Assembly: GCA_963818295.1 (NCBI GenBank) | Contig: CAWFRW010000009.1 | Span: 98,342 to 162,341 of the forward strand | Source: an uncultured Bacteroidales bacterium | Lineage (GTDB): Bacteria; Bacteroidota; Bacteroidia; Bacteroidales; VadinHA17 | Length of the DNA: 64,000 nucleotides | Direction of reading: 5' to 3' | Shown here: in pieces, positions 6,890 to 39,379 of the stretch | Numbering within the stretch: position 1 is the stretch's first letter | Layout of the letters: each line of letters opens with the position of its first letter | Notes under the pieces: generated by a model | Told to the model about the DNA's origin: nothing | The model's database searches: none | Seen by the model: the letters and a program-made list of their open reading frames with translations, nothing else | Program-made: the position numbers and the translations under genes

Positions 6890-8444
6890 TTATTTAATCA
6901 GTTTTGTATCGGTCTCCGGAAGCTTTATTTTAACTCCGTTGATACTTACCTCGATATCATTCTTATATGCAATAGTCAATAAAGTATTTCCTTCCTCATC
7001 AAATTTCTTCCATGTCTTTTCTCTTATACCCATCTGATAATACTGTTCTTCCCTTACTCTCCCGTCAACATAAAAATATGTTTGGGAACCATCAGGATTA
7101 CCCTGAACATAACTTCCTTTTGATTTAATTTTTCCTTCAGGATAATAAGTTTTCCAGAGTCCGTCCTTTAATCCGAGTATATACTTTCCTTCTTCCGTAT
7201 TATCACCTGATTTATATTTCCATTCTCCATTTTTCTCCCCATCAGAATATTGTCCCTGTGTTATAATATCTCCTGTAATTGAATATTCAGTAAATGAACC
7301 GTCACGTTTTCCCTGGAAATATTCCTCTTCCCTCAGTATAGCATTGTTTTCGTAATACCATGTCCAGAGACCATCGGGCCTGTCCATTATTATAAGATCC
7401 TGTCTGTTCCACTTTACCGGCAGGGCTATAGAATTTCCAGATCCCTGTTCTTCTGTTATCGGTAAATTGTCCTTCAGCCATAACTTTTCCGTCCGGATAC
7501 AGATCCTTCCATTTACCATTTCTGTTTCCTGCTTCATCAACAATACCTTCAGAAATAAGAAGCCCGTTATCGTTATAGACATAAGCATTTGTAACCTTTC
7601 CATCCTTTCCATAGTCTCTGTGAATTCCTACAGGAATCTTATTTCTGTACGGACCGCTATAGATCAGCTTTCCGTCTGAATCATGCTTATTAACAATTTC
7701 AATATCAGGTTCATCTTCAACCTTATTTTTTACAATTGAACCGTTATCGTACAGCATTGTAAGCACAAGTTTTCCCCTGTTGTCATATTCCTTATAATAT
7801 CCATTGAGAAGGTCATCCTTAAAGCTTTTCTCTGACTTTATTGATCCGTTCGGATAAAAATCTTTCCAGCTTCCCTGTTTAAGTCCTTTGTTGTCGGTCC
7901 TGTTTATCTTTTCCCTGCTTATAAGAAAATCATTATTGTATTCAAGGAGGGTTATAATATTTCCATCTTTATCATACTCTTTTGACAGTCCTTCCTTCTT
8001 ACCATCATTGTAAGCTATTGTCTGTTGAATTTTTCCATCGGGATAATAGATATAAGAAATACCTTCCTTTCTGTCACCTGCAAAAAGCTCTTTTGACCAG
8101 ATATAGACTCCTGCAGATGGATCTTTTTTATATTTATAATACCATCCATTTTTCTTGCCGTACAGATAATTTATCTTTTCTGTCGTATCACCGGCCTGAT
8201 CATAAAATATCCATATACTGTCGAGCATGAAATTTGTACGTTTGCCTTCAGACTTCTTCACGCCTGTGACATAGAAGCTCTTCCAGAATCCTTCAGGTCT
8301 TCCGTTCTTTATTAATCCCTGACTTGAGATAGTTCCGTTAGGGTATTTAAATACCTGAAAACCATCCTGCAATGGAGTACTATCCTGGCCATTTACAAGA
8401 TTAATCAACAAAAAAAAGTAAAGTAATAACCCAATCTTTTTCAT
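6890..8444 (-). pseudogene. MORN-repeat (YwqK-type) secreted repeat protein, one frameshift
   Basis: ORFs 7302..8444 and 6890..7612 overlap in different frames. Both carry the repeated G.W..YYPNGK....G.Y..GK..G.W motif. N-terminal signal is MKKIGLLLYFFLLINLVNG. Confidence 0.75.
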
Positions 8445-15974: not shown

Positions 15975-16058
15975 TTAACCGCAAAGTACGCAAAGGTCTC
16001 TTATCTTTTAACCCGCTTTGCGTCCTTGGCGTAGATTTTTTGTGATCTTAGCGGTTAA
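15975..16058. repeat. Post-gene dyad array of CGCAAAG-type motifs (locus A)
   Basis: The left arm is TTAACCGCAAAG-TA-CGCAAAGG (15975-15996). The inverted copies are CTTTGCG (16016-22), CTTGGCG (16025-31) and CTTAGCGGTTAA (16047-58). The array begins 8 nt after the nfo stop, between convergent genes. Confidence 0.6.
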
Positions 16059-28897: not shown

Positions 28898-28914
28898 ATA
28901 AATTCTGTTTTAAA

Positions 28915-28971
28915 CACGAAGGACACAAAGGATCGCACAAAGGTACCCAAAGGACTTTTACCTGACAAAGG
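28915..28971. repeat. Post-gene direct array of five CAC(G/A)AAGG-type octamers (locus B)
   Basis: The copies are CACGAAGG at 28915, CACAAAGG at 28924, CACAAAGG at 28936, CCCAAAGG at 28946 and GACAAAGG at 28964. The array begins 18 nt after the pirin stop. Confidence 0.5.
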
Positions 28972-29037
28972 GGATTATAACTATGGTATAATATTTGAGG
29001 TTCTGATCTGAATCCTGATCTTTTAACTTTTAATACA

Positions 29038-35787: not shown

Positions 35788-35814
35788 AAAGTTTCTGTTT
35801 AATTGATAATCAAT

Positions 35815-37797
35815 ATGAATAAAATCTTTTCGTTCGCATTATTAATCCTGACCTGTTTAAAAGGTTTTTCTCAGGAAGGAGCAGATACCTCTGCAATTTT
35901 ACAGAAAATTTACACTCTGGGCGAAGTAAAAGTAAGCGCTACGGTTGACAAGGCGACTGTCGGCACTGCAGAGATGCAAAAATATAACGCAAAGGATGTG
36001 AGCGCCGCTCTGAGGACTATGCCTTCGTTGGTAATCAGTGAGAATGGTTCGAGAAATGAAAGTACAATTTATCTGAGGGGGTTTGACATCCGCAGTGTAC
36101 CGGTATTCATGGACGGGATACCTGTATATGTTCCGTATGACGGCTATGTAGACCTGGCACGTTTCACCACTTTCGATATATCAAAGATAGATGTGTCCAA
36201 AGGCTTTTCATCAATGACTTATGGCGCCAATACGATTGGCGGAGCAATAAATCTCGTTGGGATGAAGCCCACTCAGAAGCTTGAATTGAGCGCTAAAGCA
36301 GGAGTGATGAGCGGGCAGGGTTACGAAACGAAAATCAATCTTGGCAGCAACCTGGGGAAAATCTATATCCAAACGGGTTTTTCAATTCTTCAGAAACAGT
36401 TTGTGCCTCTTTCTGCAAATTTCGATACGCTGAAGCTGGAGACAGATCACCACAGAGATAATTCATATACAAAGGATATTAAAGGGAGTCTAAAAATAGG
36501 TTACACACCAAATGCCACAGATGAATACAGTATCAATTATCAGTACTCTCATGGAAGCAAGGGAAATCCTGTATACCTGGGCAGCGATAAAAATACAAAA
36601 GTACGCTACTGGCAATGGCCTTACTGGGATAAGCAGAGCATTTATTACATTTCAAGGACTGCAATCGGAACAAAATCAGAGCTTAAAGCCAGGGCTTACT
36701 ATGATCAGTTTAAAAACAAAATCAGCAGCTTTGATGACAATAGCTATTCCACACAGAATAAAGGATCCTCATTCAACAGTTTATATGATGATTATACTGT
36801 TGGTGGTAATCTTGAATTCGCAAGCGATCTTAACAATCAAAACCATCTGAGAGCTTCCCTTCATGCAAAAAATGATAATCACAGCGAACATAATGAAGGC
36901 GAGCCTGTGAGGCATTTTGCGGACAATACTTTTTCTCTTGGAGTTGAAAATGTTTATAAACCGGTGAATAAGCTGAGTTTTATTCCCGGATTGAGCTATA
37001 ATCTCCGGAAAAGTCTGCGTGCAGAGGATTACAATTCAACAAATGATTCAATATCAAATTATCCTGCCAACAGAAACGATGCACTCAATGCCCAGTTAGC
37101 TACTTATTACAAGCTCTCGAATACTGTAAATCTCAGTTTCAATATTGCCTATAAAAGCCGGTTCGCCACAATGAAAGACCGTTATTCATACCGTAATGGT
37201 ACTGCTTTGCCTAATCCGGACCTTAAATCTGAAACTGCGCTTAATCTGGAGCTGGGTTCAGCGATTGAAATTGCTGACAAACTGAATTTCAGTCCGGAAA
37301 TGTTTTATAGCCGCCTGAACAACACTATCCAGATGGTAAGCAATGTTCAGGGGGATCTTTCCCAGATGCAGAATACAGGAGAAGCTGTCTTTAAAGGGAT
37401 TGATCTGAGTATTGTTTATCAGCCTGTTTCTTCCTTTAATATATATGCAGCCTATTCGTACATAAAGCGGAAAAACATGAGCAATCCTGATATTCTCTTC
37501 ACGGATGTTCCGGATAACAAGCTGTTTGCCTCTGTTGAATACACTATCAAAAAATTAGGGCTCAGCCTTTTCGGAGAATATGATTCCGAACGCAATAATG
37601 CAAGTGATGGTACACGGGTTTCTGCGGGATATTTTGTGATGAATTGTCAGGTGTCATATCATTTTGCTCACTGCCTGACAGCAGAAATCGGGACCAATAA
37701 TATTTTTGACAAAAATTATACTATACAGGAAGGTTATCCGGAGGCGGGACGGAATTTCTATGCAGCATTATATTTCAATCTGCCGGGAAGGGAGTAA
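35815..37797 (+). CDS. TonB-dependent receptor (plug plus 22-strand barrel; siderophore/vitamin type)
   Basis: Signal MNKIFSFALLILTCLKGFSQ, plug motifs (IYLRGFDIRSVPVFMDGIPV, ANTIGGAINLV), and a C-terminal aromatic-rich barrel. The ATG at 35815 is preferred over the TTG at 35803. Confidence 0.9.
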   Translation: MNKIFSFALLILTCLKGFSQEGADTSAILQKIYTLGEVKVSATVDKATVGTAEMQKYNAKDVSAALRTMPSLVISENGSRNESTIYLRGFDIRSVPVFMDGIPVYVPYDGYVDLARFTTFDISKIDVSKGFSSMTYGANTIGGAINLVGMKPTQKLELSAKAGVMSGQGYETKINLGSNLGKIYIQTGFSILQKQFVPLSANFDTLKLETDHHRDNSYTKDIKGSLKIGYTPNATDEYSINYQYSHGSKGNPVYLGSDKNTKVRYWQWPYWDKQSIYYISRTAIGTKSELKARAYYDQFKNKISSFDDNSYSTQNKGSSFNSLYDDYTVGGNLEFASDLNNQNHLRASLHAKNDNHSEHNEGEPVRHFADNTFSLGVENVYKPVNKLSFIPGLSYNLRKSLRAEDYNSTNDSISNYPANRNDALNAQLATYYKLSNTVNLSFNIAYKSRFATMKDRYSYRNGTALPNPDLKSETALNLELGSAIEIADKLNFSPEMFYSRLNNTIQMVSNVQGDLSQMQNTGEAVFKGIDLSIVYQPVSSFNIYAAYSYIKRKNMSNPDILFTDVPDNKLFASVEYTIKKLGLSLFGEYDSERNNASDGTRVSAGYFVMNCQVSYHFAHCLTAEIGTNNIFDKNYTIQEGYPEAGRNFYAALYFNLPGRE

Positions 37798-37812
37798 CCC
37801 GGGATGAATTAT

Positions 37813-37908
37813 CTCTGTGTAACTCTGTGCATTCTCTGTGTATCTCTGTGACAGTTCTTTATAAAAGTTGCACAGAGTGGCACAGAGGATTGACAGAGGG
37901 TCACAGAG
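37813..37908. repeat. Dyad array: 4x CTCTGTG, a 20-nt spacer, then 4x CACAGAG (locus C)
   Basis: Left-arm heptamers start at 37813, 37823, 37834 and 37844. The reverse complements start at 37871, 37881, 37892 (GACAGAG) and 37902. Spacing is 10/11/10 on both arms. The array begins 16 nt after the TonB receptor stop. Confidence 0.85.
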
Positions 37909-37939
37909 GAGAAAATGGTTTAAATTAAAATATTTTATA

Positions 37940-38737
37940 ATGAAACAGAAGATATACCAGGTAGATGCATTTACCGATAAGCTGTTCCAGGGAAACCCTG
38001 CAGCAGTTTGCCCGCTTGAAAAATGGCTGAGCGATGAGATCATGCAGAAAATTGCGATGGAAAACAATCTCTCTGAGACAGCATTTTATGTTAAGGAGGG
38101 TAATCAGTATCGCATAAGATGGTTTACCCCGACTGTTGAGGTGGATCTTTGTGGTCATGCAACACTTGCCTCAGCATTTGTATTATTCAATTATGAATCG
38201 CATCCGGGCAAATCATTGTCCTTTATCTCGAACAAGAGCGGGGTACTTAATGTAAGAAAAGATGGCGATCTGCTTACACTTGATTTTCCGGCTGATAAAA
38301 TTGAAAAAGCTGAGGTGAGTGATGAAATAAAAGCAGGATTTAATATTCATCCCAAACTTGTTTTCAGGGGAAAGACCGACTATCTGTTTGTATATGAAAA
38401 AGAGAGTGATATAGTGAATCTCCTTCCGGATTACGATAAAATATCTGTGATGGATTGCAGGGGGGTAATAGTCACATCCAGGGGAAAAGATGTTGATTTT
38501 GTCTCCAGGTTTTTCGGACCGCAGTCGGGAGTAAATGAAGATCCGGTAACCGGATCCGCACATACGACATTGACGCCATATTGGGCAGGACAGCTTGGTA
38601 AAAGAGATCTTACAGCTTTACAGCTATCGGCGCGAAAGGGTTCTCTGCAGTGCAGTCTTCAGGGCGAAAGAGTTGAGATCAGCGGGCAGTGCAGATTGTA
38701 CATGACCGGTTATCTGTCAGATTCTGAATTGACTTGA
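37940..38737 (+). CDS. PhzF family phenazine-biosynthesis-like isomerase
   Basis: MKQKIYQVDAFTDKLFQGNPAAV.., VDLCGHATLA, DPVTGSAHT. The ORF-track start at 37868 reads through the repeat array and is rejected. Confidence 0.88.
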   Translation: MKQKIYQVDAFTDKLFQGNPAAVCPLEKWLSDEIMQKIAMENNLSETAFYVKEGNQYRIRWFTPTVEVDLCGHATLASAFVLFNYESHPGKSLSFISNKSGVLNVRKDGDLLTLDFPADKIEKAEVSDEIKAGFNIHPKLVFRGKTDYLFVYEKESDIVNLLPDYDKISVMDCRGVIVTSRGKDVDFVSRFFGPQSGVNEDPVTGSAHTTLTPYWAGQLGKRDLTALQLSARKGSLQCSLQGERVEISGQCRLYMTGYLSDSELT

Positions 38738-38863: not shown

Positions 38864-39226
38864 ATGAAAACATTGAGAATCGGGATGTCGTTGTTTCTGT
38901 TGTCGTTATGTTTTGTGGCTTTTGGTCAATCCACCAAAACTGACAATAAGAAAAGTGTATATTTTGTACAGACCACTCACACTCCGGACCAATGTCTAAA
39001 CACGCTTTCAGGCATGAAAGACAAAGGTGATGCATTTCTATCGAAGTTTGAATTCGGATGCATGTCTGGTAAACATATTGGCTATGCATTTCTTGAAGGG
39101 ACATCAGAAGATAATGTTAAGATGATGCTGCCAAAGGATTTACAGGCAACAGCCACTGTTCAGAAAGTAGATAAGTTTACAGCTCAGCAGATAGAAGATC
39201 TGCATAAGCAACATGCAAACAAATAA
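38864..39226 (+). CDS. Small secreted hypothetical protein
   Basis: 120 aa with the signal peptide MKTLRIGMSLFLLSLCFVAFGQ. No family recognised. Confidence 0.5.
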   Translation: MKTLRIGMSLFLLSLCFVAFGQSTKTDNKKSVYFVQTTHTPDQCLNTLSGMKDKGDAFLSKFEFGCMSGKHIGYAFLEGTSEDNVKMMLPKDLQATATVQKVDKFTAQQIEDLHKQHANK

Positions 39227-39267: not shown

Positions 39268-39306
39268 AAAGAGTTGTTCCTGAATGCAGAAACAACTCTT
39301 TTAATT
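39268..39306. terminator. Bidirectional rho-independent terminator between convergent genes
   Basis: AAAGAGTTGTT (39268-78) pairs with AACAACTCTTT (39291-301) across a 12-nt loop. An A-run lies on the 5' side and a T-run on the 3' side. Confidence 0.6.
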
Positions 39307-39379
39307 TTATAACTATTTTTCTGACTCTTTAATTCAGAAGATTAACCGTTTTCGATTCTGATTCCTGCCGGCATGATGG

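Follow-up and report, generated by a model that had tools for sequence, protein, structure and literature searches.

Among the closest described systems are the REP, BIME and REPIN sequences with their RAYT genes, known from Enterobacteria and Pseudomonas, which are short, high-copy intergenic repeats found solo, as inverted hairpin-capable doublets and in clusters of alternating orientation (PMC3116915, PMC3733652). The REP unit is an imperfect palindrome of 20-40 nt with a terminal GTAG or CGTC tag (PMC3733652). The cyanobacterial STRR/TAACTGA repeats, also present in Beggiatoaceae and some Bacteroidetes, are intergenic heptamers of unknown function that lie head to tail without spacers, in 2 to 43 copies and almost only in direct orientation, with a patchy cross-phylum distribution suggesting horizontal spread (PMC4679880). 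The protein family PF13366 is listed as of unknown function, with multiple transfers between divisions (PMC3424549). The window analyzed here, a 64-kb stretch of DNA, carries arrays of phased heptamers that belong to a dispersed intergenic repeat family found in many phyla, usually as inverted pairs. Such pairs tightly bracket genes of the GxxExxY family (PF13366), a PD-(D/E)XK, Cas4/RecB-like family. A full-text literature search returned no description of heptad arrays or of the link to GxxExxY and, besides the PF13366 listing, the literature searched held only passing mentions of GxxExxY.

The 96-nt array and its orthologues

The array occupies positions 37813-37908 of the window, between a TonB-dependent receptor gene on the plus strand (35803-37797, product with Plug and beta-barrel domains) and phzF, and begins 16 nt downstream of the receptor stop codon (37795-37797). 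Direct reading of the window placed CTCTGTG heptamers at 37813, 37823, 37834 and 37844, and CACAGAG heptamers at 37871, 37881 and 37902, with GACAGAG at 37892. Spacers are 3-4-3 nt and the spacing is 10/11/10 in both arms; every coordinate, as well as the spacing, had been given correctly in an earlier sequence-only reading of this DNA. The left module (37813-37850, minus strand, on which its heptamers read CACAGAG) has the spacers TAA, CATT and TAT, and its head faces the loop. The right module (37871-37908, plus strand) has the spacers TGG, GATT and GGT. The two arms are separated by a 20-nt AT-rich spacer, ACAGTTCTTTATAAAAGTTG (37851-37870), that includes the module heads: ACAGTTCTT, the reverse complement of AAGAACTGT, beside the left module and AAAAGTTG beside the right, where the head reads GTTG. 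Heads of the AAGAACTTA/TTA type recur beside modules of the wider family. Exact CTCTGTG/CACAGAG sites number 10 in the 64-kb window, 7 of them within the array, and chains of at least three C-R-C-N-R-A-G heptamers at 8-13 nt spacing were found twice in the window and not once in 100 shuffles.

The right module ends 31 nt upstream of the phzF ATG and creates an N-terminal extension of the phzF ORF (37868-37939, plus strand). The extended ORF, 37868-38737, starts with TTG. It was attributed to the array and judged not to be genuine, since the most similar PhzF homologue in the database is 265 aa and is covered in full (100%) from ATG 37940. From this ATG, PhzF is likewise 265 aa with a PF02567 match over residues 8-257, in agreement with the earlier suspicion that the extension was spurious.

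Two further arrays in the window have different core motifs, as had been proposed for a family of such elements. The second member (15975-16058) is a gene-less pair with heads outward, TTAAC-CGCAAAG-TA-CGCAAAG ... CTTTGCG-TC-CTTGGCG ... CTTAGCG-GTTAA, and lies directly 3' of a stop codon. The third (28914-28975, plus strand) is a solo direct array of CACGAAG, CACAAAG, CACAAAG, CCCAAAG and GACAAAG, with a CACRAAG core, that begins 16 nt after a stop codon and has no inverted partner nearby. Both variants flank GxxExxY genes elsewhere: the TTAACCGCAAAG type of the second member in L182, L197 and L171, and the CACGAAG/CACAAAG types of the third in L183, L191, L142 and L140.

When folded as RNA, the intergenic region with the 96-nt array gave -52.9 kcal/mol (z = -6.3), and no shuffle folded equally well, which bore out the hairpin potential noted earlier. 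The absence of a terminator-type U-tract was also confirmed, as no T/U run was found 3' of the stem (the next nucleotides are GAGAAAATGG) and a terminator scan made no call at the array. An intrinsic (Rho-independent) terminator, in which a G+C-rich stem is directly followed by a U-tract, was rejected on this ground. A conventional terminator-like stem, GAGTTGTT...AACAACTC then TTTTAATTTT, was read directly at ~39268-39310, about 1.4 kb downstream of the array and 3' of a conserved 120-aa ORF (38864-39226) without a Pfam match; the scan missed this stem because its loop is 12 nt. Rfam 15 gave no match in the window at gathering score. At an E-value threshold, the array region gave sub-threshold matches only, mostly to miRNA-precursor (generic hairpin) models, and nothing covered the arrays of 20 related loci, so that the anticipated comparison with named RNA families yielded none.

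The stability of this fold, together with the start of the element 16 nt past a stop codon, would fit an RNA-level hairpin, in which the 96-nt stem, transcribed by read-through from the TonB-receptor gene, terminates or attenuates transcription without a U-tract, or serves as a barrier to 3' exonucleases or as an RNase III site. Where arrays enclose an ORF, they would then pair across it, in the manner of the stems formed by 23S rRNA intervening sequences, and a small mRNA would be freed from host transcripts. In those intervening sequences, a small ORF is tightly bracketed by inverted repeats with the potential for a long stem; they lie in rRNA helices and are excised by RNase III. Against a role as terminator stand the missing U-tract and the conventional stem with a T-run that is found downstream instead.

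Orthologous phzF loci speak further against the hairpin. The locus with a 98% identical PhzF (L255) has the same 4+4 element with four substitutions, of which three are in the spacers or head (the window's GTTG reads GTTA there) and the fourth restores the third heptamer to CACAGAG. The first CTCTGTG of the array is precisely where the contig of L255 starts, and the repeat may have broken the assembly. At 85% PhzF identity (L257), one CTCTGTG, the loop and a complete four-heptamer right module are found and, at 86% (L256), three right-module heptamers and no left-arm copy. The left-arm heptamer count is thus 4, 4, 1 or 0 across the window and these relatives, and the fold z goes from -6.3 (the window) and -6.8 to -3.4 with one left-arm heptamer and -0.4 with none. 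In the aligned right modules, the heptamers are almost invariant, with a single substitution (the third heptamer of the window), whereas the spacers differ at most positions. These results revealed that heptamer sequence and spacing are maintained, and not stem complementarity or the hairpin; the 96-nt hairpin, earlier taken to be the unit, is not kept as one. The window loop (37851-37870) is the reverse complement of the L257 loop and has, therefore, flipped between the arms.

More distant loci (L258, L259 and L260; PhzF 71-75% identical) have no array; in them, the TonB-receptor gene and phzF are separated by two additional genes, of the DUF4213/DUF364 and NTPase_1 families (L258 7210-10001; L259 and L260 7410-10001). 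Both genes are missing from the window lineage, where the array occupies that junction (37797-37940). In L256 (2815-2960), the first ~37 codons of the TonB-receptor gene are left and the deletion runs precisely up to the head AAGAACTGT of the module; A/G-rich microhomology is present at the junction. The recent ancestors of this clade acquired the element, which coincides with end points of rearrangement. We infer mobility solely from presence and absence across the relatives.

In four related genomes, the right module precedes the phzF ATG by 19-32 nt and has conserved heptamers and free spacers, as would also be expected of a local operator, in which phased transcription-factor sites control phzF and the left arm adds an inverted set; the 10-11-10 phasing would place such sites on one face of the helix. 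No regulator gene adjoins the array, however, its neighbours being the TonB-receptor gene and phzF. Nor is there room for a promoter between module and ATG, and the array is absent from the phzF loci at 71-75% identity. The same module, moreover, lies at hundreds of unrelated loci in many phyla and in any orientation to genes (see below), a dispersal that also runs counter to the iteron- or operator-like geometry first proposed. We thus consider a local operator improbable.

A dispersed family of intergenic heptad arrays

Genomes (one per species) were scanned with the pattern CTCTGTG-N3-4-CTCTGTG-N3-4-CTCTGTG. The triple heptamer was found at a minimum of 120 loci, in at least as many genomes, compared to ~1 expected by chance according to our own estimate (596 Gb x 2 strands x 4 gap combinations / 4^21); further copies, the absence of which would have made the array a local curiosity, are therefore plentiful. 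Among the matches listed, ~65 loci (roughly half) are from Bacteroidota by record title, including Bacteroidales and Rikenellaceae. The other listed matches are from Chloroflexota, Acidobacteriota, Ignavibacteria, Kiritimatiellota, Gemmatimonadota, Planctomycetota, Desulfobacterota, Beta- and Gammaproteobacteria, and two archaeal bins. Cultured isolates are also among those listed (Citrifermentans bremense R1, two Undibacterium, Iodobacter and Flavobacterium), and the spread of the arrays is therefore not merely a binning artefact.

Oriented modules were extracted from the listed loci (n = 177), and 130 of them have exactly four heptamers; the 10-11-10 spacing is found in 68. Their consensus is TTA-CACAGAG-nTA-CACAGAG-(A/G)AGA-CACAGAG-nTn-CACAGAG, with a conserved TTA head and often AAGAAC upstream; the fourth heptamer, the fixed count of four and the head were not imposed by the scan pattern. 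The Bacteroidota module reads (AAGAAC)TTA-CACAGAG-N3-CACAGAG-RAGN-CACAGAG-N3-CACAGAG, an oriented unit of ~40-47 nt, and in the general module a TTA, TTAAC or TTCAC head is followed by 3-4 C-R-C-N-R-A-G copies, spaced 8-11 nt apart. Both arms of the window element hold at least three C-R-C-N-R-A-G heptamers at 8-11 nt and share the four heptamers, 10-11-10 spacing and AAGAAC..TTA head of the Bacteroidota type; in the left module (37813-37850), the agreement with the family consensus extends to heptamer number and spacing.

The array clusters are intergenic in 139 of 147 cases (~95%) and lie between co-directional (71), convergent (23) or divergent (17) genes. A rule that module tails face genes was rejected, as the head and tail sides are equally near to gene starts and ends. 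The arrays thus follow no orientation rule and are not specifically post-gene elements, as had been suggested. An inverted partner lies no more than 160 nt away from 101 of 127 four-heptamer modules (80%), as it does in the window, where the arms are 20 nt apart; 20 modules (16%) have none and are truly solo. Adjacent pairs are arranged heads-outward (28) or, like the window element, in the minority heads-inward layout (16); spacers of 10-28 nt, a range that brackets the 20 nt of the window, are found in 13 of the 16 heads-inward pairs. Several 8-kb loci contain two or three elements, and the per-genome copy number must therefore be high.

These distributions bear on the RNA-level hairpin in both directions. 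The 80% of modules with an inverted partner are what it would lead one to expect, and the 16% that are solo, the lack of strand preference and the presence of elements between divergent genes are not. Spacers, furthermore, are not kept complementary: in 12 module pairs with the same spacing, the likeness between arms was 97% for heptamers and 40% for spacers, compared to 39% for the spacers of unrelated modules.

Chance or replication slippage, by which the arrays would be microsatellite-like duplications without recognition or function, could account for the difference in left-arm heptamer number between close relatives (4 vs 1). By contrast, it does not account for a copy number fixed at four in 130 of 177 modules, for spacers so unlike within a module that the units are not simple tandem copies, or for the recurrence of the same heptamer, head and spacing across phyla, and no comparable arrays were seen in shuffles. 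With next to no probability left to it, we regard this reading as already refuted in practice.

No target-site duplication or clean pair of filled and empty sites was found. No direct repeat is evident outside the arms, and copies within one genome differ in every spacer. Viral contigs, when scanned, yielded 54 matches, of which most were either ordinary tandem repeats or a coding repeat shared by a single family of phage genes. No GxxExxY gene accompanied any of them, and phages are therefore not evident carriers. The coding repeat, CACAGAG-CCAA-CACAGAG-CCA-CACAGAG, lies inside an ORF in L202, L205, L206, L211 and ~25 other viral loci and is unrelated to the intergenic family.

Two further kinds of structure were also observed. 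In two Bacteroidales genomes (L003 ~7290-7330 and L079 ~700-760), a small G+C-rich hairpin splits the head-proximal heptamer, as CACA-acttgccccgatttatcggg-AGAG and CACA-acttgtcccgcagagcggg-AGAG. Contiguous tandem repeats of 7-8 nt, including GGATTTC, GACTGCC, GTCTTGC, GGGACTA, GGAATGGA and others, lie near the arrays in many loci (L023, L029, L032, L078, L018, L046, L080 and L040) and recall the STRR/TAACTGA type.

GxxExxY nuclease genes between inverted modules

All-against-all clustering of 821 neighbouring ORFs, with a Pfam scan of 79 small neighbours, revealed no transposase; the families that recur are housekeeping families and GxxExxY. PF13366 (PDDEXK_3; 'GxxExxY protein' in NCBIfam TIGR04256) is the sole recurrent accessory family beside the arrays. 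In the loci selected by their arrays, all eight GxxExxY genes or fragments lie between an upstream CACAGAG module and a downstream CTCTGTG module. One of these, in L031, is a truncated remnant inside its cassette, and it is the only gene remnant found in the loops of gene-less pairs.

To avoid selection by the arrays themselves, a sample was obtained from metagenome genes chosen by protein similarity alone (the best 80 of 597 relatives), of which 73 had both flanks, and the 130 nt upstream were compared with the 130 nt downstream for inverted repeats above the 99th percentile of shuffles. By this approach, a significant inverted repeat was found at 63 of the 73 GxxExxY genes (86%) compared to 3 of 134 control ORFs in the same loci; since the 80 loci are the closest relatives of the array-linked queries, the 86% may apply to one subfamily alone. 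The repeat abuts the GxxExxY ORF, mostly within ~30 nt of the start and stop codons. Cassette arms have 3-4 heptamers of the variants CACAGAG (the commonest), CGCAGAG, CGCAAAG, CACGGAG, CACGAAG, CGCCGAG and CACAAAG, all of which fit C-R-C-N-R-A-G, and the variant follows local G+C content. Heads face outward in 53 cassettes and inward in 6. The commonest period is 9 nt (range 8-11), and it is 8-9 nt outside Bacteroidota. Thus, the spacing of one heptamer per helical turn, which had been put forward as part of the design, is a feature of Bacteroidota and not a rule of the family.

GxxExxY proteins are 63-67% identical between Bacteroidia, Ignavibacteria and Anaerolineales. Their alignment has an invariant D...E-x-K and a QxxxY motif, with weak similarity to the Cas4 nuclease core. 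A sequence search of the PDB with a GxxExxY protein returned no relative, and an AlphaFold2 model from a shallow alignment reached a pLDDT of 48. GxxExxY genes were also observed in L144, L184, L186 and L190 at one shared site, flanked by two methylmalonyl-CoA mutase subunit genes, in the rarer heads-inward layout, and just downstream of a methylmalonyl-CoA mutase subunit gene in L121.

The close bracketing of GxxExxY ORFs by arrays and the location of cassettes within apparent operons, such as between the methylmalonyl-CoA mutase subunit genes of L186 and L190, lend themselves to an RNA-level hairpin, and GxxExxY genes presumably occur in 23S intervening sequences as well. Pairing in RNA would favour G·U over A·C mismatches between the arms on the sense strand, and no such excess was found (G·U 80 vs A·C 116). 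Since the right module rather than the hairpin is conserved in orthologues, we consider an RNA-level explanation of the family unlikely; an RNA role for the paired copies is possible and disfavoured.

A different enzyme could also be responsible for the spread of the arrays. By this account, they would be REP/REPIN-like elements that owe their mobility to an IS200-type (HUH, Y1) transposase with single-stranded hairpins as its substrate, and the GxxExxY association would be secondary, through shared intergenic niches. In L057 (582-1332, an Abditibacterium MAG), a 161-aa IS200/IS605-family transposase gene was observed with a five-heptamer CACAGAG module on one side and a four-heptamer CTCTGTG module on the other. 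This enclosed gene agrees with such an account, as do the high copy number of intergenic inverted pairs, both head-to-head and tail-to-tail as in BIME clusters, and the presence within the module head of TTAC, a known IS608 target. The L057 protein, however, scored 21.8 bits compared to a cut-off of 80 for the REP-associated tyrosine transposase, and no HUH or IS200-type gene recurs near the arrays, whereas GxxExxY genes are flanked in 86% of cases. Single modules, in addition, are not palindromes and lack the GTAG or CGTC tag that defines REPs (PMC3733652). Mobilisation of this kind is, in our judgement, a poor prospect.

Proposed origin of the arrays and comparison with known systems

On balance, we lean towards reading the window feature as a gene-less head-to-head pair of end modules of the GxxExxY cassette family, which would be read at the DNA level, selfish and without a dedicated host function. 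According to this model, the modules would be recognition-site arrays bound as DNA by an oligomeric sequence-specific factor, for which the GxxExxY nuclease would be the most economical candidate. They would form the terminal repeats of a small selfish cassette, which may be spread or homogenised when nuclease-induced breaks are repaired from repeat templates. Pairs without a gene and solo modules would be left behind, as with REP sequences or MITEs, and cassettes and gene-less pairs may thus represent autonomous and non-autonomous copies of one selfish element. The window copy would have been gained recently in its clade, at a site without the two genes that relatives carry; it would have no dedicated host role, and any effect of its hairpin on the TonB-receptor/phzF transcript would be a by-product.

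Besides the missing target-site duplication and clean filled/empty site pair, three observations count against this cassette model or its simplest forms. No GxxExxY gene lies in the 20-nt spacer between the window arms and none was detected by tblastn anywhere in the 64-kb window. A simple terminal-inverted-repeat model does not explain the heads-inward layout of the window element, which is shared by 16 adjacent pairs (vs 28 heads-outward) and 6 cassettes (vs 53). The 8-9 nt period outside Bacteroidota, finally, argues against a single binding geometry on one face of the helix.

It is a realistic possibility that the arrays represent a new class of mobile element. In its full form the proposal is more tentative, and we would sooner expect it to fail than to hold: arrays and GxxExxY would be a new minimal class, a ~0.5-kb cassette with a lone 120-aa PD-(D/E)XK nuclease that recognises phased heptamers at its own ends and at gene-less copies and spreads by break-induced copying within genomes and across phyla. 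In an even bolder version, drawn by analogy with archaeal bulge-helix-bulge introns, the nuclease might cut the internal loops of the RNA stem and the cassette would excise itself from host transcripts.

GxxExxY is a large family without a function, with at least 8,000 sequence clusters in a single search and an NCBI name that records only its motif. The rule that its genes lie between inverted arrays of one degenerate heptamer, and that the same arrays occur gene-less in intergenic DNA of many phyla, makes the protein and the repeat family testable together, for binding or cutting of heptads by the nuclease and for movement of the cassette. For annotation, the arrays create false ORF extensions (as with PhzF) and possibly break assemblies (as in L255), and they mark sites of gene loss. 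If mobile, the cassette would add a nuclease type not now counted among bacterial transposases or homing systems.

Several known systems were compared with the heptad arrays. Heptad operators of ribbon-helix-helix proteins (omega of pSM19035) and parC or iteron arrays consist of several short direct and inverted sites that are read cooperatively, similarly to the Bacteroidota arrays with their one-helical-turn spacing. They are, however, locus-specific and lie beside their own regulator, partition or replication genes, with contiguous heptads in the case of omega, and are not known to be dispersed through chromosomes. Iteron or operator membership was rejected, since the array's neighbours are a TonB-receptor gene and phzF and the module itself recurs, dispersed, in at least 120 genomes. 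Unlike the intervening sequences of 23S rRNA, heptad arrays are found in intergenic DNA, have no G·U signature of RNA pairing and, in the window copy, enclose no ORF. MITEs and their parent transposons provide a closer parallel, in that gene-less inverted-repeat pairs exist beside longer gene-carrying copies and L031 holds a truncated gene remnant. By contrast to MITEs, no target-site duplication was seen at heptad arrays, the copies are not near-identical (conservation is confined to the heptamers), the gene between the repeats encodes no known transposase, and heads-inward pairs such as that of the window do not fit a terminal-repeat layout.

STRR/TAACTGA repeats share with heptad arrays their intergenic heptamers and patchy distribution, and Parabeggiatoa and Bacteroidota are common to both lists (PMC4679880). 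The heptad arrays differ in having spacers of 1-4 nt, 3-4 heptamers and inverted pairing; membership was rejected on the spacers of 3-4 nt between the window heptamers and a copy number fixed at four. REP/REPIN-RAYT systems are alike in the forms in which their repeats occur, in a small nuclease gene flanked by repeats and in long persistence at orthologous sites. The heptad unit is, however, not a tagged palindrome: it consists of four phased heptamers behind a TTA or TTCAC head and has no palindromic symmetry. The associated gene is a multi-copy PD-(D/E)XK (GxxExxY) gene compared to the single-copy HUH/Y1 RAYT. REPIN-RAYT systems are, in addition, described as mainly vertically inherited, whereas the heptad family shares one heptamer across many phyla. 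Membership among REP/REPIN sequences was rejected both on the unit, as single modules have no self-complementarity and their heads are TTA, TTAAC or TTCAC, and on the flanked gene, as no HUH gene recurs near the arrays and the L057 protein is far below the cut-off of the RAYT model. Taken together, the heptad family belongs with the inverted repeats that are scattered through intergenic DNA and associated with a small nuclease gene, and its nearest published relatives are REP/REPIN-RAYT and TAACTGA/STRR, both of different architecture.
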